Positions 1 to 50,336 of a stretch of DNA of 64,000 bases are shown here, piece by piece. The notes under the pieces are model-generated. The model was not told the origin of the DNA and made no database searches. It saw only the letters and a list, made by a program, of their open reading frames with translations. A program made the translations under genes and the position numbers. The DNA is from Escherichia coli (GTDB lineage: Bacteria; Pseudomonadota; Gammaproteobacteria; Enterobacterales; Enterobacteriaceae): assembly GCF_024223415.1 (NCBI RefSeq), contig NZ_CP100500.1. One strand, written 5' to 3'. Each line of letters starts with the position of its first letter. Positions within the stretch are counted from its first letter, which is position 1.

Positions 1-223
1 AGATTCAGCAACGGATACGGTTTCCCCAACTTGCCTACTTCCATACGTGTCCTCCTTACCAGAAATTTATCCTTAAGCTCCTCAATAACCATTTTCCTGC
101 TAACTAAATTCATGGTTAAGGTTGCATAATGATAGGCAACAAATGTATAACATTTTCTTTACCAAAAGAAATAAACAAAAGCGACCGACAAAAGCATCGG
201 ATTACGGCAGGAGACATAATGGC

Positions 224-1522
224 ATGGCTGAAAGTACTGTAACGGCAGACAGCAAACTGACAAGTAGTGATACACGTCGCCGCATTTGGGCGATTGTGGG
301 GGCCTCTTCAGGTAATCTGGTCGAGTGGTTCGATTTCTATGTCTACTCGTTCTGTTCACTCTACTTTGCCCACATCTTCTTCCCTTCCGGGAACACGACG
401 ACTCAACTACTACAAACAGCAGGTGTTTTTGCTGCGGGATTCCTGATGCGCCCAATAGGCGGTTGGCTATTTGGCCGCATAGCCGATAAACATGGTCGCA
501 AAAAATCGATGCTGCTATCGGTGTGTATGATGTGTTTCGGCTCACTGGTAATCGCCTGTTTGCCTGGTTATGAAACAATCGGTACGTGGGCTCCGGCATT
601 ATTGCTTCTCGCGCGTTTATTTCAGGGATTATCCGTTGGCGGAGAATATGGCACCAGCGCCACCTATATGAGTGAAGTTGCCGTTGAAGGGCGTAAAGGT
701 TTTTACGCATCATTTCAGTATGTGACGTTGATCGGCGGACAACTGCTAGCCCTACTGGTTGTCGTGGTTTTACAACACACCATGGAAGACGCTGCACTCA
801 GAGAGTGGGGATGGCGTATTCCTTTCGCGTTAGGAGCTGTGTTAGCTGTTGTGGCGTTGTGGTTACGTCGTCAGTTAGATGAAACTTCGCAACAAGAAAC
901 GCGCGCTTTAAAAGAAGCTGGATCTCTGAAAGGATTATGGCGCAATCGCCGTGCATTCATCATGGTTCTCGGTTTTACCGCTGCGGGCTCCCTTTGTTTC
1001 TATACCTTCACCACTTATATGCAGAAGTATCTGGTAAATACTGCGGGAATGCATGCCAACGTGGCGAGTGGCATTATGACTGCCGCATTGTTTGTATTCA
1101 TGCTTATTCAACCACTCATTGGCGCGCTGTCGGATAAGATTGGTCGCCGTACCTCAATGTTATGTTTCGGTTCGCTGGCAGCGATTTTTACCGTTCCTAT
1201 TCTCTCAGCATTGCAAAACGTTTCCTCGCCTTATGCCGCTTTTGGTCTGGTGATGTGTGCCCTGCTGATAGTGAGTTTTTATACATCAATCAGTGGAATA
1301 CTGAAGGCTGAGATGTTCCCGGCACAGGTTCGCGCATTAGGCGTTGGTCTGTCATATGCGGTCGCTAATGCTATATTTGGTGGTTCGGCGGAGTACGTAG
1401 CGTTGTCGCTGAAATCAATAGGAATGGAAACAGCCTTCTTCTGGTATGTGACCTTGATGGCCGTGGTGGCGTTTCTGGTTTCTTTGATGCTACATCGCAA
1501 AGGGAAGGGGATGCGTCTTTAG
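224..1522 (+). CDS. kgtP: alpha-ketoglutarate:H+ symporter (MFS)
   Basis: ORF 122..1522; translation from internal Met ([15 protein letters not shown]...) matches remembered K-12 KgtP, 432 aa; start taken at that Met. Confidence 0.92.
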
Positions 1523-1842
1523 TGACGGGTCAGTTGCCAGACGGTATAGCCGGTGCTTGCACCGGCGACATCCCAGGCCAAATCCTTCCAGCTCCAGCCG
1601 CTCCCTTCGGGGCGGCTATCCCAAAGCTCTTTTGACGCCCCCAAACTGACAGAGAACATCAATCCAAACATGGCACTGCGATCCCGGCTCATCCCCTGAT
1701 GCTGTGAATATTCATTTCCGGCGGCGGAAAGCATCGCCGAGGCGATAAAGTGTTGAGCTTTATCCTGCCCGCTCCAGCTATCGTTAGCCATATGGCTGCA
1801 TCCAGAAAGTAACAATAGCGAACAGACAAAAAGAATACGCAA
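1519..1842 (-). CDS. yfiM: DUF2279 lipoprotein YfiM
   Basis: ORF 1519..1863; lipobox LLLSGC; K-12 YfiM is 107 aa, consistent with a TTG start at 1842 ([15 protein letters not shown]...). Start uncertain. Confidence 0.75.
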
Positions 1843-1887
1843 AACGTGGCCTCCAAAAAACAAACCCCGTACAGGACGGGGTTGTGA

Positions 1888-3243
1888 TTACAGGATGCGG
1901 CTAATTAATCGGTCGATGCGGATACGGCGCAAACGGCGGATGAGTTTACGAACCTTCACCGGATAATCGGCAATACTTTGCAGATCGCGATAGTGCTTAA
2001 CGATGGTGGTATGCTCGCGGATCAGCTCCAGTTCTTTCTCTCGCTGTGGCGCAAGCTCCAGTTGCGGATCGTGGATCAAAATGGCGTTTTCCAGATCCAG
2101 ACGCCAGGCGCGCGGGTTCAGGTTATTACCGGTGATCAACATCCACTTATCATCAACCCACATCCCTTTCAGGTGATAGGTGTTGTCGTCATCTTTCCAT
2201 AACCGAACCACTAACTGGTCAGTATTGACGTAATACTGCAAACGGCTCAGGAAACGACGCAGATTGATCTCATAGAGATAAGGCAATGCGCCAATTATCT
2301 TGAAAGGTTCATCTTCCGGAATGTAGAAGTCGTTCGCGGTTTTATCACCAACAATAATTTCGACCTTTTTCCCTTCGCGCAGCAACTGGATAATATTGCG
2401 CACAAGGATTGCTGGCAGGTTGAAGTATGGCGTACAGATGGTTAGTTTCTGCTCGGCACAAGGCATAAGATGGAAAATGGTCTTGTTCAACAGACTCGAT
2501 TTCCCCAGCCCCACTAGCGGCGTTACGGAAAGCTGATCGTTGTCGGCATCGCCCTGGAAATGATAAGCGGCATCACGCAGCTCCTGGCGGAACAGACGAA
2601 TATCATTCTTGATTTCCGGGCTTTTTGGCCGATTAACATCATCCAGACGATTAACGCCGCGGCCATTCATAATATTCTGTGTAACCCATTCAAACATAAT
2701 GTCTGACATCTTACGGTTACGGATAAGATGATAACGGTCGTAGCGATATTTATCGTGCTGATGCAGGTAAACATCGTTCAGGCTGGCACCGCTATAAAGT
2801 ACGCTATCGTCGATGATAAAGCCTTTAAAGTGCAGAACGCCAAGGGCTTCACGGGTATTGATTGGAACGCCATAAACCGGAACATCTACGCCCGGATTTT
2901 CCTGCGCCATGCGGCAGTACCAGTCAGCGTTAGTGTTAGATGCCGCAGCGCCAATGCGTCCACGTTGTGCACGATGCCAGTCGACCAGCACCCGCACATC
3001 CAGTTCCGGACGCTGCCTTTTAGCTTCATACAACGCGTTCAGAATGCCTTTGCCACCGTCATCCTGTTCGAGATACAGGGCGACAATGCAAATGCGCTGC
3101 TTCGCGCTGGCTATTTTTTCCAGCAGCGTCTCCCGGAAGTCGGCGGGAGCGTAAAAGAAATCGACATCATCAACTGATTGAGAAATCTTGGGTAGTTGGG
3201 CAAGGTGTTGTTGATGTTTATTACGCTTAAATTTTGACAACAT
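1888..3243 (-). CDS. pssA: CDP-diacylglycerol--serine O-phosphatidyltransferase (phosphatidylserine synthase)
   Basis: 452-aa ORF; MLSKFKRNKHQQHLAQLPKISQ... matches remembered PssA (451 aa from second Met). Confidence 0.93.
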   Translation of the reverse strand: MLSKFKRNKHQQHLAQLPKISQSVDDVDFFYAPADFRETLLEKIASAKQRICIVALYLEQDDGGKGILNALYEAKRQRPELDVRVLVDWHRAQRGRIGAAASNTNADWYCRMAQENPGVDVPVYGVPINTREALGVLHFKGFIIDDSVLYSGASLNDVYLHQHDKYRYDRYHLIRNRKMSDIMFEWVTQNIMNGRGVNRLDDVNRPKSPEIKNDIRLFRQELRDAAYHFQGDADNDQLSVTPLVGLGKSSLLNKTIFHLMPCAEQKLTICTPYFNLPAILVRNIIQLLREGKKVEIIVGDKTANDFYIPEDEPFKIIGALPYLYEINLRRFLSRLQYYVNTDQLVVRLWKDDDNTYHLKGMWVDDKWMLITGNNLNPRAWRLDLENAILIHDPQLELAPQREKELELIREHTTIVKHYRDLQSIADYPVKVRKLIRRLRRIRIDRLISRIL

Positions 3244-3356
3244 CACAGTGCATTTCTTCTCTGTTCATTGAAGGGTCCTCTGTGCAATGCAGACGACATA
3301 AGCGGGCAATAATAACACCAGTCCCGATTAAGTGGTCAACATTTCCAGTACCTTAC

Positions 3357-6017
3357 TCATGATTCCTCGCGTTGGGCAAGATTTAGCGTAAGCCCAACGA
3401 TCCCCTCTTCGAGCTGGATATCAACGTTAAACCCGAGCTTGCGGGCCAGCGCCACCATGCCACGATTATTTGGCATCGTAATACCATTCAGACGTTGTAG
3501 TCCGTGATCTCGCGTATAGGTAATCAACTTTTCCATTAAGCGTCGACCTAAGCCTAACCCTTTGAGATCCGAGCGAACCAGCACGGCAAATTCGGCATCG
3601 ATGTTATCAGGGTCGGAGATCGCACGCGTGACGCCGAGGATCTCTTCCGTTTGATCAATACGTCGTACCGCTACAAACGCCATTTCCCGATCGTAGTCGA
3701 TCTGCGTCATGTTGGCTAAATCTTCATGGGTAAATTCGTTGATCTCGCTAAAGTAGCGGTAATAAAGATCTTCTTTGGTGACTCGCGAAATGAATTGCTG
3801 AAGTTGTGGCTCATCTTCTGGCAAAATCGGGCGGAACAAGCAGCGTTCACCGTTTTTCAATTCTACCCATTCTTCCAGCTGATGCGGATAAGGGCGCACT
3901 GCCAGCCGACTCTCGTTATCGCCTTCAAACGGCGCGATATCCAGCGTGACATCCAGCGCGTTAAATTCACTGCCAGAAGCCAGCAAAGGATGAATATCCA
4001 GACGCTGAATTTCCGGGCAATCGACAATCAAGTTGGAAACCTGCACCAGAAGCTGGCTCAAGCCTGCAACATCCAATGGGCGTAGCGCACTGCGCGCACG
4101 AATCTTTTTACTTTTGATCCCCTGAATAACCAGATAGCGGGCCAGGTTCATATTCAGCGGCGGCAGTGCGACGACGGCTTGATCTTCAGGACGCCACTCC
4201 ACACCGCCTTCACCCAGCATGATCAACGGCCCAAAAACCGGATCGTGCTCAACCACAACCCGCAACTCCTGAGCGCCAGCACGGTTAGCCATACTTTGCA
4301 CCAACAGGCCGTGGACCCGCGCCTGCGGCCAGGTCATTTTTACGCGATCGAAAATAGCGTTTGCCGCTTGCTGGACTTCATTGGCTGTACGCAGGTACAG
4401 CATGACGCCCTGAACTTCCGATTTATGTGGAATATCCGGCGAACGCAATTTCAGCGCCACCGGATAACCAATCTGTTCGGCAATATGCACCGCTTCGGTG
4501 CTATCACTGGCAATCCAGGTAGGGAGCGTGTTCATGCCATACGCTTGCAGGATGGGCTGAACTTCATGGGTATCGAGCGACGTAGCCCCTTCGGCAATCG
4601 CCTGTTGCAACAGAAGATGCGCTTTTGCGGTATTGGAAGTCAGATTGCTGGGCAACGCCGGCGTTTCGCGTAGTTGCTTCTGATTACGCCGGTACTCCAC
4701 CATATGCATAAAAGCAGTGATGGTTCCTTCCGGGGTACGGTAGGTCGGCAGCCCGGCTTCGCTGAATAAACGTCGTGCCTCTTGCGAGGAGTGCTCGCCG
4801 CACCAGTTCGTCAGCAGAGAAACATACTTGCTGCGGGGATGATGCTTTACCGCTTCAATTAATGCTTGCGCACTTTCTGTTGCGGGAGCAGCGGCGCTGG
4901 GCGAATGAATAACCATCAGCGCATCAAAATCCTGGCTATGGAGCAGAATGTCCAGCGTTTTGACATAATGCTCGCTGCTGGCGTCATCGCGCAGATCGAG
5001 CGGGTTAGAGATTGCCACATGTCCTGGCAGTGCATCGCGCAGTTTCTGGCAGGTTTCTTCGCTTAGTGTTGCCAGCTTGCCATTGCGTGACCATAAGGCA
5101 TCCAGCGCCAGCGCGGCAGGCGCAGCACCGTTGCTGATAATCATCAACCGGTCGCCACGCAGCGGGCGCATATGGCTAAGGGTTTCTACCGCCGAAAACA
5201 GTTCGTGGGTGTCCTGTACCCGCAACAAACCGGCACGCTGAATAGCCGCATCCCATGCCGGGTCCATTCCTGCCGTCGTGTTGAGCAGTCGCTGTGCCGC
5301 CGGGCTACGTCCGCTTTTAATCACCAGAATCGGTTTATTACGCGAGGCACTACGGGCCGCCGAAACAAAGCGTCGCGCGTCGCTTAACTGTTCGAGATAG
5401 AGCAGGATGGCGCTGGTTTTACTGTCGCGTGCCAGATAGTCAAGCAATTCATCAACGTCGATATCCAGGCTGTCGCCGAGCGCAATAAAGTAGGAAAAGC
5501 CCATCTCACGTTGTTGCGCCCAGTCGAGGATGGTGTTGGAGACGGCAGCCGATTGTGAAATAAACGCCAGCTTGCCGCGTTTAATAGGTACCGGCGAAAA
5601 GCTGGCATTCAGACCTTGCCAGGGAGCCAGTAAACCCAGACTGTTTGGTCCAAGCAGGCGCATGTTATGGCGCAGGGCGCAGGCGCGGAGATCTTCGTGT
5701 TGCGATGCCGGGGCGGAAAGAATAATGCAGGTTTTACAGCCTTTCTCGCCGAGCTCTTCCAGAAGAGCAAGATTACGGCTGGCATTGGTACATAAAACCG
5801 CAAGGTCGGGTGTAAAGGGCAAGCTGGCAATATCCGGCCAGGCCAACACACCCAACACCGCTTTCCAGGCTGGCGTCACCGGGAGTACCGGTCCGTTAAA
5901 GCCTCCCGCCAGCAGGTTACGCATCATCAGGTAACCTGCGCGATTGGGTTTCATCGACGCGCCAATTACCGCTATCGATTTTGGTCGCAGTAGTGCTTCC
6001 AGTCCTCGCTGACTCAT
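3357..6017 (-). CDS. patZ: protein lysine acetyltransferase (NDP-forming acyl-CoA synthetase-like + GNAT)
   Basis: 886-aa ORF; MSQRGLEALLRPKSIAVIGAS...; size and position between pssA and yfiP match PatZ/YfiQ. Confidence 0.9.
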   Translation of the reverse strand: MSQRGLEALLRPKSIAVIGASMKPNRAGYLMMRNLLAGGFNGPVLPVTPAWKAVLGVLAWPDIASLPFTPDLAVLCTNASRNLALLEELGEKGCKTCIILSAPASQHEDLRACALRHNMRLLGPNSLGLLAPWQGLNASFSPVPIKRGKLAFISQSAAVSNTILDWAQQREMGFSYFIALGDSLDIDVDELLDYLARDSKTSAILLYLEQLSDARRFVSAARSASRNKPILVIKSGRSPAAQRLLNTTAGMDPAWDAAIQRAGLLRVQDTHELFSAVETLSHMRPLRGDRLMIISNGAAPAALALDALWSRNGKLATLSEETCQKLRDALPGHVAISNPLDLRDDASSEHYVKTLDILLHSQDFDALMVIHSPSAAAPATESAQALIEAVKHHPRSKYVSLLTNWCGEHSSQEARRLFSEAGLPTYRTPEGTITAFMHMVEYRRNQKQLRETPALPSNLTSNTAKAHLLLQQAIAEGATSLDTHEVQPILQAYGMNTLPTWIASDSTEAVHIAEQIGYPVALKLRSPDIPHKSEVQGVMLYLRTANEVQQAANAIFDRVKMTWPQARVHGLLVQSMANRAGAQELRVVVEHDPVFGPLIMLGEGGVEWRPEDQAVVALPPLNMNLARYLVIQGIKSKKIRARSALRPLDVAGLSQLLVQVSNLIVDCPEIQRLDIHPLLASGSEFNALDVTLDIAPFEGDNESRLAVRPYPHQLEEWVELKNGERCLFRPILPEDEPQLQQFISRVTKEDLYYRYFSEINEFTHEDLANMTQIDYDREMAFVAVRRIDQTEEILGVTRAISDPDNIDAEFAVLVRSDLKGLGLGRRLMEKLITYTRDHGLQRLNGITMPNNRGMVALARKLGFNVDIQLEEGIVGLTLNLAQREES

Positions 6018-43660: not shown

Positions 43661-44386
43661 ATGCTGGTGAATGATAAGGGGGTGCAGATGCTGACAGCAA
43701 TCAACAACGAAAAAATTGTCATCGCAAGGGACGCGCAGAAACCGGGAATTTTCGCCTGCCCGGAATGTGGTGAAGTTGTCACCCTGCGGAAAGGTTCGGT
43801 GAAAGTTCACCATTTCGCCCATCGCAGCACCACATCCTGCGGTTACGGGAAAGGCGAATCTGAGTTGCACATGGATTTGAAAATGCAGGTCTATGACGCG
43901 TTGAACGCGCATCGTGAGGTGGAATATGTTGCGATGGAGGTCGCAGTCGGTGATGTTCGTCCCGATGTGCTGGCGATTATTCGGGGTCAGAAGGTTGCTT
44001 TTGAGATTCAGGTTAGTTCGCTGAGTATTGAAGACCTCTATCGCCGCACGGTTGCGTACGCAGCTCAGGACATTGCGATGATCTGGATCCTGCACTGGCC
44101 TGAAGGTACTGCACTGGACCGGCTTTATCACCCTGCATCATGGGAGCGATGGTTACATACTTGCGGAATGGCAACTCTGTACTTCTGGGCGGGCGATGGC
44201 TGGGTCAGGCCAGTGCGTCTGGGAAACCGACAACATGGATTACAAAGAGCACCTCGTGCCCATCTGGTTGATGATTTCGAACCAAAGCGAACAGGCGGGT
44301 GGATTAAAGGTGATTTTCTGATACCTGCTCGCTTTATCTGGAATCGTGTGCGACGGCAAAAACGTAGAGGTCAGAGCTATGCGTAA
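43661..44386 (+). CDS. CoiA-like / PD-(D/E)xK-type nuclease family protein
   Basis: 241 aa; CPECG zinc ribbon, HHFAH, and DVRPDVLAI...AFEIQVSS resembling competence protein CoiA-like nucleases. Confidence 0.5.
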   Translation: MLVNDKGVQMLTAINNEKIVIARDAQKPGIFACPECGEVVTLRKGSVKVHHFAHRSTTSCGYGKGESELHMDLKMQVYDALNAHREVEYVAMEVAVGDVRPDVLAIIRGQKVAFEIQVSSLSIEDLYRRTVAYAAQDIAMIWILHWPEGTALDRLYHPASWERWLHTCGMATLYFWAGDGWVRPVRLGNRQHGLQRAPRAHLVDDFEPKRTGGWIKGDFLIPARFIWNRVRRQKRRGQSYA

Positions 44387-44813
44387 TATTCAACAGGTTT
44401 TAGAGCGCTGGGGTGGCTGGGCTGCCAATAGCAACACCACAGTGAGCTGGGCTCCAATAGCGGCGGGATTTAAAGGGCTGGTAGTCAGCAGCCTGCCTGG
44501 CAGGCTGAGTTGCTGCGACGACGATGGCCTGATTATCGATGCTTGCGTCTGTCGGCTGCAGCAGGTCCGTAAGCCTGAGGAACTGGACGTCATTATGCTG
44601 TACTACGTCTACGGGTTAAGCAAACGTGAGATAGGACGGCGGCGTCGATGTTCTGAAGGATTTATCCGCCAGCAGTTGCAGGTAGCTGAGGGATTCATTG
44701 AGGGGTGTCTCTGCATGCTGGGTGTGAGCCTTCAGATGGATCCTGAGGTCGAAATTCAAAGGGATGAAAAAAGTATTAGTGCGCTACGCAAAAACTGCGC
44801 TACGCTGGTATGA
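44379..44813 (+). CDS. late-gene antiterminator Q (phage 21/82-type)
   Basis: ORF 44346..44813; probable start MRNIQQVLERWGGWAANSN...; position directly upstream of the lysis cassette. Confidence 0.7.
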   Translation: MRNIQQVLERWGGWAANSNTTVSWAPIAAGFKGLVVSSLPGRLSCCDDDGLIIDACVCRLQQVRKPEELDVIMLYYVYGLSKREIGRRRRCSEGFIRQQLQVAEGFIEGCLCMLGVSLQMDPEVEIQRDEKSISALRKNCATLV

Positions 44814-44940
44814 GTTGAATTTCTGACCTCAACGAAGAGCTCCAAATTATTGGGGGTTTTTTGTACGCACAACAGGTAATAGTATTGAACCCGCAGACCT
44901 CGCGGAACTGGTGAAAGGTGCCGCGCAGTGCTCTTATCGT

Positions 44941-45070
44941 TGTGGTGAAGCTCAATGGCGAGCTAGCAGATAGGCGACAGTGAAAATACTAGTCATGTAT
45001 CTGACCGCCGCGCGTACTGCAATCGGCAGCGCACCGATGGAAGCCGGTTCGATTCCGGCCGCCACAACCC
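44941..45070 (+). other. tRNA-like element (canonical 3' half; 5' acceptor/D-arm match separated by ~58-nt insert) - probable degenerate phage tRNA or tRNA 3' fragment
   Basis: T-arm GCCGG-TTCGATT-CCGGC, anticodon-arm-like ATCGG-CAGCGCA-CCGAT, acceptor 3' strand CGCCACA complementary to TGTGGTG at 44941; does not fold as a canonical 76-nt tRNA. Confidence 0.3.
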
Positions 45071-45187
45071 AAACTGAGCCGTAGCCACTGGCTGTCCTGA
45101 ACTCCTCAGTGATAGTTACGCTGCGGCCTTCTTTTTCCCCTTCCTAATACAAGAACTACGCAATCCGTTACTGGCGGAGGCGTTGCT

Positions 45188-45403
45188 ATGAAATCAATGG
45201 ACAAAATCTCAACTGGCATTGCCTACGGAACATCCGCTGGTAGTGCGGGATACTGGTTTTTACAGTGGTTGGATCAGGTCAGTCCGTCACAGTGGGCTGC
45301 TATTGGTGTGCTGGGGAGTCTGGCACTGGGCTTTCTGACTTATCTGACGAATCTGTACTTCAAGATAAAAGAGGACCGTCGCAAGGCGGCGCGGGGAGAG
45401 TAA
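45188..45403 (+). CDS. holin (phage 21 S / EssD-like, class II)
   Basis: 71 aa; [45 protein letters not shown]... matches remembered DLP12 EssD/S21. Confidence 0.9.
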
Positions 45404-45407
45404 TTCA

Positions 45408-46343
45408 ATGGAACATAATAATGAAAAATCCAGAGAGCACTCTGGAAACAGCAAACATTATTCCATTGCTCATTCATTCGGCGGCTTTCGTGATGTAGTC
45501 GGACAGGGTGCTGAGAGAGAACAGGAGAGTAATACAATGACTCAAAACCATGAACTGGTTGTTAAAGGAACCCGAAATTTTGAGAATAAAATTGCGGTGA
45601 TTTTAACCCTGCGTGACAAAAAGCGTTTTGCCTGTGAGATATTTGACTTACACATCAACCTTGAACGACAGGAAGGCGCCACTCTGGAGTTTTATGAGTC
45701 AGAGGCAATAAAACGGGCAAAGACATTGTTCCGGGATGTTGCTGCAGGGTTATGTGAAGGGGACGAGCTGTCGCCGGAAAAGCGCCCCATAATTTTACAG
45801 GCGCACAATGTGTGGATAACCTACAAAGGAAAGCTACCGGGAAGAATTACTGGTTCTCTGAAGATGCCGCCGTCAACACTGCGGTCAGAAAAAGAGGCGT
45901 CTTGTCTGCAGTCTGAGTACTCCATTACGGTTAAAAGTGCCGGAGAGGAAGGAAATAAACGTTATTTTATTGCGTCTGCACCTGATAAAGATCAGGAATG
46001 GGAGTGTAACCGGCCATCCTTTGTTGTATACGGAGATGGCGGGAAAATAACCATCTCAGAAAATGGGAAATTAACACCGCCATCGCACCAGCATAGTGAG
46101 GCGCTCATTGAATTTGCCATTGATTACCTGAAGAACAATAAAAAGCAGGGGCTGATGAAGCGCATTGGTCGTTGCATGGGATATCTGCAGGTAGCAGCTG
46201 AGATTGAAATGATGGCCAGTGGTGCTGACAATGATGCAGTTGTGCTGGAGGCTCTTCTGCGTGATTTTGATAATACGCCCTTTAAGAAAGCACCTGTTGA
46301 CTGGATGCAGCCGGGGATGACTTATCTGAAAGGGCGTATATAA
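45408..46343 (+). CDS. hypothetical protein inserted between holin and endolysin (moron A; alternative start 45537)
   Basis: 311-aa ORF with RBS, starting 4 nt after holin stop; no recognisable motif; N-terminal 43 aa low complexity, so Met44 (MTQNHELVV..., RBS GGAGAG) may be the real start. Confidence 0.5.
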   Translation: MEHNNEKSREHSGNSKHYSIAHSFGGFRDVVGQGAEREQESNTMTQNHELVVKGTRNFENKIAVILTLRDKKRFACEIFDLHINLERQEGATLEFYESEAIKRAKTLFRDVAAGLCEGDELSPEKRPIILQAHNVWITYKGKLPGRITGSLKMPPSTLRSEKEASCLQSEYSITVKSAGEEGNKRYFIASAPDKDQEWECNRPSFVVYGDGGKITISENGKLTPPSHQHSEALIEFAIDYLKNNKKQGLMKRIGRCMGYLQVAAEIEMMASGADNDAVVLEALLRDFDNTPFKKAPVDWMQPGMTYLKGRI

Positions 46344-46352
46344 GGTGGCTCG

Positions 46353-46667
46353 TTATCTGTTGCTGGATAATCGACTGAAGATGCGTTCTTTTTGTGTTTT
46401 TGCGTAATGATTGTCCCACTCACAATCAAGGTAGCTTAATTCTTCATTCAACCAGTTATTTATATTGGTCTTAATACGCATAAGCATGGGCTGTGTTAAT
46501 GCTCTGGCGATAATGCCGAGAGTCACAGGTGTGAGATGTCCATACGGCTCAGCCTGAATGGATTTTACTGCATCGTGTTCTTGTGGGAGGAGTAAGAGGC
46601 ACTCTGATTTTACCCGCTCATTTATGGCTTGCAGGCATAAATCATAATTATGTTGATCGTTATGCAT
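46353..46667 (-). CDS. hypothetical protein (moron B, 104 aa), convergent with moron A
   Basis: ORF only; lies inside the lysis cassette on the opposite strand. Confidence 0.45.
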   Translation of the reverse strand: MHNDQHNYDLCLQAINERVKSECLLLLPQEHDAVKSIQAEPYGHLTPVTLGIIARALTQPMLMRIKTNINNWLNEELSYLDCEWDNHYAKTQKERIFSRLSSNR

Positions 46668-46795
46668 GGTTAATCCTCTACTGAAATTGTCAGATATATT
46701 TCAGCCATCAGGAAAAACGCCAGTGTCCTACCGCTGGCGGGCTGAAGATTTAACATATCCAGGGATTCGGAACCGATAAATCCTGATAAATATCC

Positions 46796-47329
46796 ATGAA
46801 CACCAAAATCAAATATGGCCTGTCGGCTGCCGTTCTGGCACTGATTGCCGTCGGTGCGCCTGCGCCTGATATTCTCGACCAGTTTCTGGATGAAAAAGAA
46901 GGTAACCACACAACGGCATACCGCGATGGTTCCGGTATATGGACCATCTGTCGTGGTGCCACAATGGTGGATGGTAAGCCCGTCATACCGGGAATGAAGC
47001 TGTCGAAGGAAAAATGCGTTCAGGTTAATGCCATTGAGCGTGATAGGGCGCTGGCATGGGTGGAGCGCAATATTAAAGTACCTCTGACCGAAGCACAGAA
47101 AGCGGGTATTGCGTCATTCTGTCCCTATAACATTGGCCCCGGTAAGTGTTTCCCGTCGACGTTTTATAAGCGGCTTAATGCCGGTGATCGTAAAGGTGCC
47201 TGTGAGTCGATTCGCTGGTGGATTAAGGACGGTGGGCGTGATTGCCGCACACGTTCAAATAACTGCTACGGACAGGTTATTCGTCGTGACCAGGAAGCAG
47301 CACTTGTGTGCTGGGATATCGACAGATGA
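46796..47329 (+). CDS. SAR endolysin (phage 21 R-type lysozyme)
   Basis: 177 aa; N-terminal signal-anchor-release helix (GLSAAVLALIAVGAPA); lysozyme core (TICRGAT...). Confidence 0.85.
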   Translation: MNTKIKYGLSAAVLALIAVGAPAPDILDQFLDEKEGNHTTAYRDGSGIWTICRGATMVDGKPVIPGMKLSKEKCVQVNAIERDRALAWVERNIKVPLTEAQKAGIASFCPYNIGPGKCFPSTFYKRLNAGDRKGACESIRWWIKDGGRDCRTRSNNCYGQVIRRDQEAALVCWDIDR

Positions 47330-47421
47330 GCAGAATATTTTGCTGAAAAATGACGTTGGCCAACGCGGACGGATAACACGATATTCGACATAAATGAATT
47401 TAAATAGTGAATAAAAGCAGA

Positions 47422-47458
47422 AACCCCGATTGTTGGTCGCAATCGGGGTTTTGTGTTT
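47422..47458 (+). terminator. rho-independent terminator inside the R-Rz insert
   Basis: 11-bp stem aaccccgattg/caatcggggtt followed by TTTTGTGTTTCT. Confidence 0.7.
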
Positions 47459-47644
47459 CTGGCAGTAAGTTATGGGAGGCTGCCTTGATTAATTTTAGCG
47501 GAGGAGACTGGATTGTGGAAGCTCTGAAATTGCTCGAAAGAAGTCCGGTTCTGAGAAGAATGTTTTATATAGCTCTTATAGTTATCGGAGCATTCGCCGT
47601 TGCGAAATCACTTCCGGGAATAGCTGAAATCATAAAGGCGCTGA

Positions 47645-47818
47645 ATGCATAAAGAATACCTGGCTGAGGCTGACAAACAGGTCTCTGAATTGAAAGCTCC
47701 GGTAACCGATGACATCAGCGGAGCGGTGGCTTTTGCCATTAAGTGGGTGGCAGTCGGCGTTGCTATATCACCGGTACTGTATGGGCTGGCAAAGCTGGTT
47801 ATTGCGTTGAAATCATAA
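47645..47818 (+). CDS. small hydrophobic peptide (57 aa) carried on the R-Rz insert
   Basis: ATG 47645 to TAA 47818, MHKEYLAEADKQVSELKAPVTDDISGAVAFAIKWVAVGVAISPVLYGLAKLVIALKS, one TM helix; not in the ORF track. A second possible peptide MFYIALIVIGAFAVAKSLPGIAEIIKALNA (47560..47652) directly precedes it. Confidence 0.35.
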   Translation: MHKEYLAEADKQVSELKAPVTDDISGAVAFAIKWVAVGVAISPVLYGLAKLVIALKS

Positions 47819-47881
47819 CTGTTACGGCCAGGTTATTCGTCGTGACCAGGAAAGTGCATTAGCCTGTTGGGGGATAGATCA

Positions 47882-48349
47882 GTGAGCAGAGTCGCCGCGA
47901 TTATTTATGCTCTGGTTATCTGCATCATCGTCTGCCTGTCGTGGGCGGTCAATCATTACCGTGATAACGCCATCGCCTACAAAGAACAGCGTGATAAAAA
48001 AGTCAGTGAGCTGAAGCAGGCGACCGCCACCATTACTGACATGCAGCAACGCCAGCGTGCTGCTGATGTACTCGATGCTAAATACACGAAGGAGTTGGCT
48101 GATGCGAAAGCTGAAAATGATGCTCTTCGGCGCAAGCTTGATAATGGTGGTCGGGTGCTCGTCAAAGGAAAATGCTCTGTGCCATCCTCAGCCGAAACCT
48201 CCAGCGCCTCCGGCATGGGCAATGATGCCACCGTCGAACTCTCTCCAGTTGCTGGACGAAACGTTCTCGGTATCCGGGACGGAATCATCAGAGACCAGAC
48301 AGCACTGAGAACGCTTCAGGAATATATCAGGACGCAATGCCTTCGATGA
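47882..48349 (+). CDS. i-spanin Rz
   Basis: ORF 47867..48349; lambda Rz-like sequence ([33 protein letters not shown]...) beginning at a GTG aligned with lambda Rz Met1. Confidence 0.85.
48102..48308 (+). CDS. o-spanin Rz1 (lipoprotein, nested in +1 frame of Rz)
   Basis: ORF 48057..48308; start [21 protein letters not shown] with lipobox VVGC; proline-rich mature part ([16 protein letters not shown]). Confidence 0.8.
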
Positions 48350-48521
48350 TAGCGATAATTTTACTGATCATCCTTCACATCTGGCTCTGTAGACAGGGTG
48401 GTGATCACTTCTGGAGTGAATCCAGATTAAACATCTCATTGCTGATGCTTGAAGTTGAGCATCTGGCGCGCGGTAAGGGGCTGCGTTGAAATAAGAGCCA
48501 GTCATTAAAAATACCTGGATT

Positions 48522-48548
48522 TAGCCTCGCATTCGCGGGGCTTTTTAT
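48522..48548 (+). terminator. hairpin + T-run after Rz/Rz1
   Basis: agcctcgc-att-cgcggggct followed by TTTTTATT. Confidence 0.55.
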
Positions 48549-48550
48549 TG

Positions 48551-48776
48551 CCATTACAAAAGCCACTCCCTACAGAGTGGCTTTGATAATGGCTTATACC
48601 CTACACGGGATAACTTAACTGATATCCCTTTTAACGGATAAAGGTATTCAAGCCTGACACATCATGCGCTGTATCGTCGCCGTATTCCCGTATTAACAGA
48701 GACCGTAGCCCGACGGGGAACTCCTTCTGCGAGAGTGTGCGGGAATAATCAAAAACGATGCACACCGGGTTTTTAC
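48551..48776. repeat. ~225-bp direct repeat, left copy (DR-L)
   Basis: Near-identical to 50338..50562 (a few mismatches); weaker similarity continues ~70 bp further in both copies. Confidence 0.85.
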
Positions 48777-48899
48777 CGCGCTAATGATTCGCGGGTTTGT
48801 CCCTCATGCTCGCCAGTCCTGTGCGAGGGTGGAAGAAACAGGGCATGTATTCAGGAGCGTGCGACCGTGGTCGCACGGTATCTTTGTCAGGAGGTTTTG

Positions 48900-49760
48900 A
48901 TGAAAGAGTTGCAAAAAATTAATTCAATAATGGAAAGGTTAAGTGCTCTTGAGCGTAAGCTGGACGATTGTGGAAAGCTGTGTGTTGAAAAGCAAAATGA
49001 GCTTTACCGGGAATTTTTTACAATCGTAAGTGAGCTGATGCCAATTGTTAATAACTGCCTGATGACATCCAGATTTTTTAATGTCGATGCTACTACATCC
49101 AGAAAATTTTCTGTGAAAATTCAAGAAAGAGTTTCTGGTAGTGTGACAAGAGAGATGGCTGAACAGTTGGTGGCAATGAGCAATAAAACAAAAAGAAAAA
49201 AGGCATTGCTTGTAACAGCAAATCAGCTTTCAGGGCGCGTTGACTTTCAGGTCAGACAGGGTGGGCGTGTACTGGTAAATGATGCGTTCGTTGGACGTAG
49301 CTTTAGTCCTTACTCGATAAAATATGATGTTGATGCAGATGATCAGGATATCAGCATTTCCTGGAAATCTGAGACAGCAGGGATTGTATTAACAGCAGAG
49401 TTGTTGAGTGATGATAAAAATGATGTCCAGCATCATTTGGACGAAAAGAATCATATTTCTGAAATTTGTATGAAGCCACGCAGCGGAATGACTTTATTGT
49501 CACGCACTCTTGCTGCTGGCTTTTCTGCACCGGAAAAACGTGTGCTTCTGGTAGTGCCTGAAGATGCAGATATTCGACCACTGAATGGCTGTGATGTTAT
49601 TAGTGCAAAAACATTGCATACCCGCGTCATTCCTGTACCGGATGTGGTCATTATTGATGATGTTGAGAAATGCAAGTCTGTTTCCTCAACTGCCACAATC
49701 AAGCGAATTTTACGTTGTAGCACGTCGGCTGTTGTATTCCGGAAGCAGTTACATAACTAA
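48900..49760 (+). CDS. hypothetical protein (286 aa), first gene of AT-rich cassette
   Basis: ORF 48735..49760; probable start Met56 MKELQKINSIMERLSALERKLDD... with AGGAGG RBS; coiled-coil-like N-terminus; AT-rich codon usage unlike surrounding phage genes. Confidence 0.55.
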   Translation: MKELQKINSIMERLSALERKLDDCGKLCVEKQNELYREFFTIVSELMPIVNNCLMTSRFFNVDATTSRKFSVKIQERVSGSVTREMAEQLVAMSNKTKRKKALLVTANQLSGRVDFQVRQGGRVLVNDAFVGRSFSPYSIKYDVDADDQDISISWKSETAGIVLTAELLSDDKNDVQHHLDEKNHISEICMKPRSGMTLLSRTLAAGFSAPEKRVLLVVPEDADIRPLNGCDVISAKTLHTRVIPVPDVVIIDDVEKCKSVSSTATIKRILRCSTSAVVFRKQLHN

Positions 49761-49886
49761 CCAGTTTTGTTTTGCAGAACATCCTCAACTAAAAGCTTAT
49801 AGAAAGAGAGCCTGAGATATTTTTTCTGTCTCTCGTAGTTGTTTGTTTTTTTTTTCGAACAGGCTTACAACTTACAGGATATAAAC

Positions 49887-50336
49887 ATGCAAGAAGAAGC
49901 AAATAAAATTCTTGTTGATTTATTGAAGAAGGCCAGCGATGGAATTGATTCCGCCATTGCATTCAGTCAGGCTCAGATTCCGGATGTTGTTCATCAGTTG
50001 CTGGTATGGAATATGGTTGATAGCCTGATTAAAACATTAATAGCCATTTCAACAATCCCTCTGGTTTTCTGGTTTATGAAGAAGCAGTGCCAAAGAGTTG
50101 AGACAGGTAAAATCGGTGATGAAGGATATTCATGGGAGAAGGGAAATCCCAAATACAGGCCGACAATGGTTTGGGATAGCAAAGGTGATATTAATCTTCT
50201 TATCGTGCCATTGGTTGGAGTTTTGACTATGTGGGGGATTTTTATTATTTGTGCAGTAACCAATATGACATGGTTAAAAATCTGGCTGGCACCTAAGTTA
50301 TATCTAATCGAATACGCAGCATCACTAATTAAATAG
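49887..50336 (+). CDS. hypothetical membrane protein (149 aa, two predicted TM helices), second gene of AT-rich cassette
   Basis: ORF 49839..50336; start MQEEANKILVDLLKK...; hydrophobic segments LIKTLIAISTIPLVFWFM and LLIVPLVGVLTMWGIFIICAV. Confidence 0.55.
   Translation: MQEEANKILVDLLKKASDGIDSAIAFSQAQIPDVVHQLLVWNMVDSLIKTLIAISTIPLVFWFMKKQCQRVETGKIGDEGYSWEKGNPKYRPTMVWDSKGDINLLIVPLVGVLTMWGIFIICAVTNMTWLKIWLAPKLYLIEYAASLIK

Follow-up and report, generated by a model that had tools for sequence, protein, structure and literature searches.

A probable mosaic, moron-like accessory cassette in the R-Rz junction of a phage-21/Stx-type prophage lysis cassette of Escherichia coli

How did 480 bp of extra DNA come to lie between the endolysin gene R and the i-spanin gene Rz of a lambdoid prophage, and does this DNA serve the phage? 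The question is raised by a 64,000-nucleotide stretch of Escherichia coli DNA (contig NZ_CP100500.1), hereafter called the window. The window is part of the E. coli chromosome; its positions 1-6000, with patZ-pssA-kgtP, were 100% identical to several strains. It holds a lambdoid prophage with a lysis cassette of the phage-21/Stx (Shiga toxin) type, and the insert (47335-47814) is flanked in this cassette by two copies of the 3' end of R. The initial annotation had read the locus as the footprint of a recombination between two phage lineages that trapped a small membrane-peptide module inside the lysis cassette, an interpretation that was partly supported by the present analysis. We consider it probable, if by no means certain, that the insert is a mosaic, moron-like accessory cassette in the R-Rz junction, with the origin, expression and function proposed below.

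The direct repeat around the insert comprised 76 nt, at 47259-47334 and 47815-47890, with a spacing of 556 bp. The duplication reported in the initial annotation was therefore real, but pairwise alignment changed its coordinates and lowered its identity from the reported value of about 85% to 78% (59/76, ungapped). The identity was unevenly distributed, with 36 of 38 positions matching in the first half (95%) and 23 of 38 in the second (61%). A 24-nt exact core, CAGGTTATTCGTCGTGACCAGGAA, was located at 47273-47296 and 47829-47852, and the identity dropped right after it. This core occurred exactly twice in the 64-kb window and not once in 100 dinucleotide-preserving shuffles, even when 3 mismatches were allowed. 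Copy 1 closes an intact, Phage_lysozyme-matching R gene, as had been claimed. Its last 9 nt, ATGAGCAGA, include the R stop and are the same as the first 9 nt of the lambda/PhiR47-type Rz allele, which bears out the claim that copy 1 runs into the start of an Rz. Copy 2 is a relic of an R 3' end, and it is untranslated because no start codon follows the stop at 47808-47810 in the R frame. Rz initiation can therefore not be coupled to R termination and must use its own GGGGGA-N7-GTG.

The state before insertion could be recognized in relatives. R and Rz were contiguous in E. coli S1-IND-01-B (L020), phage PhiR47_1 (L019) and K-12 Qin, which represent empty sites, and in the first two of these the flanking genes were as in the window. 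Positions 1325-3135 of the S1-IND-01-B locus aligned to window 45524-47334, and its positions 3060-4087 to 47815-48842 at 98.7%; the 76-nt overlap between these two alignments was the duplicated segment. From the overlapping alignments, the window can be described as an empty-site phage to which a clean 480-bp insertion and a 76-bp duplication have been added. Two features by which morons are recognized were found, namely added DNA that separates genes neighbouring each other in related phages, and a GC content differing from that of the neighbouring genes (44.8% in the insert and 41.1% in ORF A, one of its two small open reading frames [ORFs], versus 51.5% in R and 52.4% in Rz).

The same comparison clarified the start of Rz. 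In the empty-site phages the GTG of Rz overlaps the TGA stop of R (CAGTGAGCAGAG, GTGA), so that the GTG is native to this Rz allele, and the idea that Rz restarts with a GTG after the insert was not upheld. Copy 2 was 94-95% identical to the true R/Rz junctions of Chlobot, Evi, PhiR47_1 and mEp460, and its 3' half matched the S1-IND/PhiR47 allele. In copy 1, by contrast, the 3' half (GCAGCACTTGTGTGCTGGGATATCGACAGATGAGCAGA) corresponded to the allele that insert-bearing phages such as E7-1N7 have at the end of R. Judged from these alignments, the divergence between the copies is allelic and not the result of decay. The assignment of copy 2 to a different R allele was confirmed in this way, and the allelic copies together with the S1-IND-01-B comparison also support a recombination between phage lineages.

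Table 1. Coordinates of the insert, the flanking repeat and the lysis genes in the window (aa, amino acids; nt, nucleotides)
Feature	Coordinates	Strand	Description
Repeat copy 1	47259..47334	+	Final 67 nt of R through the T of its TGA stop, then the 9 nt ATGAGCAGA
Post-R spacer	47335..47419	+	Non-coding, AT-rich (34% GC)
Hairpin and U-run	47420..47462	both	19-bp stem with U-runs on either side; hairpin itself 47420-47452
ORF A	47485..47652	+	55 aa; TTG start behind GGGAGG
ORF B	47645..47818	+	57 aa; ATG overlaps the ORF A stop (ATGCATAA)
Repeat copy 2	47815..47890	+	R 3'-end relic; begins inside ORF B, sharing its final 4 nt (TAA stop included); Shine-Dalgarno (SD)-like GGGGGA and Rz GTG
Holin S	45189..45403	+	71 aa; phage-21/EssD type, MKSM dual-start motif; start of the lysis cassette
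Endolysin R	46796..47329	+	177 aa, intact; Pfam PF00959 Phage_lysozyme, E 7e-24; phrog_7
i-spanin Rz	47882..48349	+	155 aa, GTG start, intact; Pfam PF03245 Phage_lysis, E 8e-29; phrog_13, E 3e-72
o-spanin Rz1	48102..48308	+	+1 frame inside Rz; lipobox VVGC; AGGAG 7 nt before ATG

By comparison of loci, from which we infer the order of events, an origin of the cassette can be proposed. In the ancestral state, R and Rz would have been contiguous, with the GTG of Rz lying over the TGA of R. The left junction, (A/G)T(A/G)AGCAGA followed directly by ATATTTT, was common to all insert-bearing relatives examined by alignment, which places the original insertion behind codon 3 of a lambda-type Rz (MSR...). 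At an older stage, the ORF B stop would have been joined illegitimately to position -67 of an R gene at a 4-9-nt microhomology (ORF B reads ...CGTTGAAATCATAA, R reads ...CGTTCAAATAAC), and this join would have left an R 3'-end relic downstream of the cassette, in the order ORF B-relic-Rz. The ORF B stop was joined to the same R position in E7-1N7 (GAAATCATGAATGTTACGG versus GAAATCATAACTGTTACGG), in which the relic was more decayed and fused to a small ORF of the 'IRWW' kind, described below, and to another Rz type. We propose that the relic stays homologous to all R genes of this type, and that a donor R-cassette-relic could therefore patch the cassette into a naive R-Rz phage via homologous crossovers in the 24-nt core. 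Such crossovers would have put the cassette on a PhiR47/S1-IND-like backbone or, equivalently, would have swapped everything downstream. Copy 1 would then consist of a backbone 5' half and a cassette-linked 3' half, and copy 2 of a cassette-linked 5' half and a backbone (Rz-linked) 3' half. A crossover in the core would explain why the identity of the copies falls from 95% up to the core to 61% beyond it.

The insert itself was found to be a mosaic. The window matched Stx-type phages up to the hairpin, and the next ~35 nt matched the 569R3/STEC1589 type. The segment 47465-47651 matched an ORF A cassette at 88%, the matching records being mostly prophages of pig enterotoxigenic and Shiga toxin-producing E. 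coli (ETEC/STEC), and from ~47671 onwards the window matched the ORF B core. The post-R spacer and the hairpin were present at 80-84% identity in 2,171 of 5,426 complete E. coli genomes and in 317 phage records, among them H-19B and numerous Stx1/Stx2 phages; these counts are of matches to part of the insert. In alignments, the first ~55 nt of the spacer were nearly invariant among Stx-type phages. In IMG/VR, ORF B lay between R and an H-19B-type Rz in 80 of the 80 surveyed loci and was followed by a 43-aa transmembrane (TM) ORF. The post-R spacer, the terminator and ORF B are thus a common conserved part of Stx-type lambdoid lysis cassettes, and the view of a module trapped by chance had to be given up. 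The initial annotation had itself allowed that the insert might prove to be common conserved sequence of known function; common it was, but no known function was found. Relatives of the cassette are common in Stx-type phages, and the find is a recombination fossil more than a novelty. The window lineage itself was represented by at least 15 near-identical draft-genome or metagenome contigs and was absent from the 5,426 complete genomes.

The strong terminator noted earlier in the insert was confirmed: the hairpin at 47420-47452 had a folding free energy (dG) of -24.1 kcal/mol with a z of -5.4, and it scored as an intrinsic terminator on both strands. Its pairing was retained in 97% of the pair cells in 8 homologues, with one compensatory pair. 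An Rfam search of 44000-50000 at E <= 1 found no known small RNA (sRNA), with AgvB, AsxR, Esr41, STnc100 and Sok all unmatched. Nothing turned up apart from a tRNA-like fragment and a terminator look-alike below threshold, and the post-R spacer matched no Rfam family. The known Stx-phage sRNAs were also considered as candidates for the post-R element. AsxR and AgvB lie 3' of stx (PMC4104026), and PasA and PasC are flanked by the esterase gene and the holin gene (bioRxiv 10.64898/2026.05.13.724894); since none of them is located at the post-R position, they were rejected.

The initial annotation had proposed small hydrophobic peptides of 57 and about 30 aa. Two ORFs are indeed present, but with sizes of 55 and 57 aa. 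The ratios of nonsynonymous to synonymous substitution (dN/dS; Nei-Gojobori) were 0.10-0.26 for ORF A and 0.05-0.24 for ORF B, pairs with saturated synonymous sites included, and the overlap between the ORF A stop and the ORF B start (ATGNATAA/G) was conserved. Judged by their substitution patterns, both are real genes under purifying selection, and both are predicted to encode small single-pass membrane proteins, possibly with opposite membrane topologies. ORF B has an acidic N-terminal tail, one hydrophobic helix and a basic C-terminal end (KS). It matched phrog_1115, to which no function is assigned there, with an E value of 1.1e-26 over residues 11-57. The core of the match starts from residue ~15, and the N-terminal ~15 aa are lineage- or junction-specific. 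In E. coli and Salmonella, 90 homologues of ORF B were found, every one named 'hypothetical'.

ORF A has two Arg before its hydrophobic stretch by hydropathy. In its AlphaFold2 model, which had a pLDDT (predicted local distance difference test) of 80, two helices (residues 8-19 and 21-54) met at a kink at Pro21; the predicted shape is that of an N-terminal amphipathic helix, a Pro kink and a long hydrophobic helix. No Pfam, PHROG or NCBIfam family was matched by ORF A. An exhaustive profile search of 1.84 billion representatives returned only 17 matches, most of them 39-88 aa, none of which led to a named family. The consensus reads MNFSxG(D/E)WIV(E/K)ALxLxExSxVLRRM(F/Y)Y, followed by the hydrophobic helix, and some members, such as P0105 and P0119, end in (I/V)RWW. 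In complete E. coli genomes the ORF A cassette was left unannotated by the prokaryotic genome annotation pipeline (PGAP) and RefSeq.

Homologues of ORF A with 56-60% aa identity lay between an R that was 53% identical and an Rz that was 28% identical. The order in L115 and L022 was S, R, a 36-aa TM ORF, a terminator, ORF A, a 41-aa 'IRWW' ORF and Rz, and in Salmonella L021 it was Ant, ORF A and Rz. Small TM ORFs of the 'IRWW' kind (phrog_6632 and relatives; L017 1659-1796, L018 1095-1175, L004 2219-2317 and L115 1667-1792) directly preceded an H-19B-type Rz. They showed a conserved stop/start overlap with Rz, TGGTGGTGA(A/T)ATGAAC, in phages with very divergent R and Rz. In the Stx2a phage Stx2_14040 (L016 2659-2797), the 'IRWW' ORF between R and Rz contained an in-frame TAG and the upstream hairpin was weakened, which suggests that the module is decaying in that lineage.

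A possible second in-frame start was noted within ORF A, GTG 47515 behind GGAGGAG, from which a 45-aa product would result. Codons 5-12 of ORF A (47496-47519; the 24 nt AGCGGAGGAGACTGGATTGTGGAA) were nucleotide-invariant in all homologues, whereas synonymous sites elsewhere varied freely. Of the codons that were invariant in amino acid, 8/8 within codons 5-12 were also invariant in nucleotides versus 5/19 elsewhere (p = 6e-4). The invariance would fit an internal SD sequence (GGAGGAG) with GTG 47515, that is, a 55/45-aa dual start; homologues beginning at the equivalent of this GTG were P0099, P0109 and P0119. It would also fit, as far as consensus matches go, a minus-strand promoter, TCCACA-16-TAAAAT.

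As for expression, no plus-strand promoter-like site was found between the terminator and ORF A, and over 46300-48800 the promoter-like matches lay on the minus strand only, in a consensus scan that may miss weak promoters. Because ORF A lacks such a site, the ORFs are most likely transcribed within the late operon. In lambdoid late transcription, the Q-modified polymerase reads through intrinsic terminators. ORF A, ORF B and Rz/Rz1 would be transcribed late, in the Q-antiterminated operon; given Q antitermination, the terminator need not silence Rz, which would remain expressed, since it keeps the SD-like GGGGGA and the GTG of the native allele. An intrinsic terminator preceded the first small ORF in all of the contexts examined, the one in L115 being unrelated in sequence. 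A moron would be expected to have its own promoter upstream and a terminator downstream; this feature was not found, as the terminator lies upstream of the ORFs.

We speculated that, late in infection, the small proteins join the pinholin S, the putative signal-anchor-release (SAR) endolysin R and Rz/Rz1 in the inner membrane, and that they modulate the timing or efficiency of lysis. This is our best guess as to function, held tentatively and at somewhat under an even chance, because the R-Rz position persists across very divergent lysis genes and because the 'IRWW' relatives share a stop/start overlap with Rz. No study of ORFs between R and Rz was found in full-text searches of the literature.

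Other explanations of the insert were weighed. If it were an inert recombination scar, the ORFs would be chance frames in junk DNA between two R ends. The duplicated, diverged R 3' ends around the insert and the untranslated relic fit such a scar. However, chance frames should not show dN/dS values of 0.05-0.26 across pairs reaching synonymous saturation, homologous proteins with identities as low as 46-60% in E. coli, Salmonella and phage contigs of IMG/VR, and the conserved overlap of stop and start codons, and we regard a scar as very improbable. Direct repeats on both sides of an insertion also recall a transposable element, for which the 76-bp repeat would be the target-site duplication. 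Yet neither terminal inverted repeats nor a transposase was found, and the copies are different alleles (61% in the 3' half), whereas a target duplication starts identical. Furthermore, 76 bp is far above the known target-site duplications of transposable elements. A transposon was therefore ruled out as scarcely credible.

Two further explanations concern what the proteins do and how they are controlled. The cassette could be a type I toxin-antitoxin-like module, in which an antisense RNA silences a membrane-damaging peptide until late transcription overwhelms the RNA. The proposed RNA, of ~75 nt, would run from a minus-strand promoter in the ORF A 5' end to the hairpin and be complementary to the ORF A ribosome-binding site. 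Near ORF A, it is indeed the minus strand that has the sole promoter-like site (TCCACA-16-TAAAAT, 47519 to 47492), which is retained in L005, L021 and L024 and sits on the synonymously invariant codons 5-12. Both in the window and in L005, the hairpin is also scored as a terminator on the minus strand, and the RNA is predicted to fold into a hairpin with a U-run behind an unpaired 5' end. Moreover, the L115/L022 lineage lacks the -10 hexamer together with the minus-strand U-run, an analogous minus-strand site occurs in the 5' end of a 60-aa ORF B variant, and such an RNA would account for the terminator always travelling upstream of the first small ORF. However, the consensus promoter matches were not above chance (2 found, 4.2 expected), the internal SD GGAGGAG with its GTG start explains the invariance about equally well, the space behind the terminator is too short for a toxin promoter, the Rfam search returned no antitoxin family, and the conservation is imperfect in one common ORF B variant, in which both the -10 and the hairpin are weakened. 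Such a module is, in our view, improbable. It was somewhat less doubtful, though still unlikely, that the small proteins are lysogenic-conversion morons, i.e., inner-membrane proteins expressed from the repressed prophage, for instance for superinfection exclusion as with HK97 gp15, and unrelated to lysis. The product of the HK97 gp15 moron is a small inner-membrane exclusion protein (PMC3594210); the proteins of the window are likewise of the small inner-membrane type, the cassette is lower in GC than its neighbours, and a tail/baseplate operon, a type of site that the gp15 moron also occupies, was found to harbour the ORF A cassette as well. On the other hand, no plus-strand sigma-70-like promoter was seen before the ORFs in the window, L005, L021, L024 and L002, and the terminator lies upstream and not downstream, unlike in an independent transcription unit. 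Furthermore, ORF B was confined to the R-Rz gap in all of the 80 loci, the position of ORF A is kept across very divergent R and Rz, and PADLOC gave no match.

Several observations weigh against the accessory cassette as we read it. The R-3' relic is rare, being found solely in the window lineage and in E. coli E7-1N7; it was present in 0 of the 80 IMG/VR ORF B loci, the ORF B/relic junction GAAATCRTRAMTGTTAYGGNCAGGT had 0 matches in the IMG/VR scan, and the full arrangement occurred in 0 of 5,426 complete E. coli genomes. The 'landing-pad' role of the relic is accordingly supported by two lineages, and either a window-type-first or an E7-type-first order of events would fit the comparison. 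In addition, ORF A cassettes also lie between baseplate genes, far from R/Rz, in pig ETEC/STEC prophages, so that linkage to lysis genes is not obligatory; for the 88%-matching cassette this position was taken from two records examined, L005 and L006. In L005 1932-2344 (E. coli O139:H1 W13-16) and in L106-L113, baseplate genes flanked the same hairpin, an ORF A homologue and, downstream of the homologue and overlapping it, a 54-aa TM ORF. Both the read-through of the terminator and the translation of the ORFs are steps that we infer from the sequence. Finally, the searches gave no function for the small ORFs: Pfam, NCBIfam and PADLOC were empty, and the PHROG matches were all of 'unknown function'.

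A broader scheme may also be considered, which we rate as quite unlikely. In this scheme, one 'pre-spanin' superfamily of small membrane proteins, with the consensus N-F-S-x-G-x-W-I-V-x-A-L ... TM ... (I/V)RWW, would comprise ORF A, the 'IRWW' ORFs and perhaps also ORF B, and would tune lysis by pinholin, SAR endolysin and spanin. Its members would be carried as self-contained cassettes of a terminator plus an antisense promoter in the first codons, with a cis-antisense RNA silencing them in the lysogen, and maybe with a 55/45-aa dual start like that of holin/antiholin.

The locus offers a legible example of how a cassette can move between lambdoid phages, with the relic of a neighbouring essential gene as the homology pad. 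Such a pad would let homologous recombination carry the cassette into naive genomes and leave R and Rz undamaged. It also draws attention to small membrane-protein genes that are common yet unstudied in Stx-type lysis cassettes, parts of which occur in ~40% of complete E. coli genomes, and to a gap in annotation, ORF A being without a PHROG, Pfam or NCBIfam family and passed over by PGAP. Lysis timing governs phage yield and toxin release, and if the proteins do modulate lysis, they would be relevant to the release of Stx.

The lysis genes around the insert (Table 1) were all intact, i.e., the holin gene, R, Rz and Rz1. Holin S showed 86% identity over 71 aa to EssD of S1-IND-01-B by tblastn, and its homologue in L007 carries PF04971; with membership of the S21/EssD family and a dual-start motif, it is a class II holin. 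At the N-terminus of R, hydropathy revealed a weakly hydrophobic, uncharged, Gly/Ala-rich SAR-like segment of 18 residues, YGLSAAVLALIAVGAPAP. Rz1 was assigned from the ORF list and by reading of the sequence, and its lipobox in the +1 frame of Rz marks the pair as spanins. The end of Rz is overlapped by a 50-aa ORF (48337..48489, plus strand) with an N-terminal hydrophobic segment, which matched phrog_11822 (E 9e-38), where no function is assigned. This ORF, a second unstudied small membrane protein of the cassette, was also present in the empty-site relatives and is annotated in L019 and L020.

Upstream of R, a 311-aa ORF at 45408-46343 was DUF1327/YdfR-like over residues 44-143 and matched phrog_1085 with its C-terminal half. 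It looks like a fused or extended YdfR-family protein, the true start of which is probably the Met at 45537. A 104-aa ORF on the minus strand (46353-46667; phrog_1853, 'unknown function') breaks up the S-R operon between the holin/YdfR genes and R. Its segment was 100% identical in S1-IND-01-B, and similar minus-strand ORFs were found in L002, L007 and L008. Directly upstream of the holin gene, 45012-45070 resembles the 3' half of a tRNA or tmRNA, with a T-arm (GGTTCGATTCC) and an acceptor end (partial Rfam tmRNA match, E 3e-5). No tRNA was called in the window by ARAGORN. The fragment is probably a tRNA remnant, since phage PhiR47_1 has four tRNA genes at the equivalent place.

Among known systems, the window stands close to the small-ORF arrays between R and Rz of Stx phages (H-19B, Stx2_14040, CP-933V-like, PhiR5/PhiR12 and vB_EcoS-569R3), which contain phrog_1115, 4906, 6632, 4493 and 3246. 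It shares with them the left junction, the post-R spacer and terminator (80-84% identity), a phrog_1115 member, and small TM ORFs chained by overlaps of stop and start codons. Unlike these arrays, the window has ORF A replacing or preceding the usual first ORF, a new ORF B N-terminus, and an R-3' relic with a lambda/PhiR47-type Rz in place of the 43-aa ORF with an H-19B-type Rz. Small membrane proteins next to endolysins are also known from other phages. LysA of P2, with four hydrophobic helices, is a small membrane protein encoded between the endolysin K and the spanin LysB/C. LydD of P1 is a pinholin in the lyz operon (PMC9025707), and gp25 of Mu is a releasin of SAR endolysins (PMC9239132). 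As with these modulators of holin function or SAR-endolysin release, the proteins of the window are small, of membrane type and endolysin-adjacent, and they may act in a similar way. They differ in having no sequence relationship to any of the three and, compared with the four helices of LysA, one hydrophobic helix; the Mu-type releasin family DUF2730 was not matched, nor was any Pfam family for ORF A or ORF B at E <= 0.1. In relation to the lambdoid morons (Juhala et al. 2000; HK97 gp15, lambda bor/lom; PMC3594210), the cassette differs in that no coding-strand promoter was found, in the terminator lying upstream, in the flanking 76-bp target duplication, and in an expression that is probably late and not from the repressed prophage. 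Like those morons, it is extra DNA of lower GC between genes that are adjacent in relatives, encodes predicted small membrane proteins, and spreads between contexts as unrelated as the R-Rz gap and the baseplate operon.

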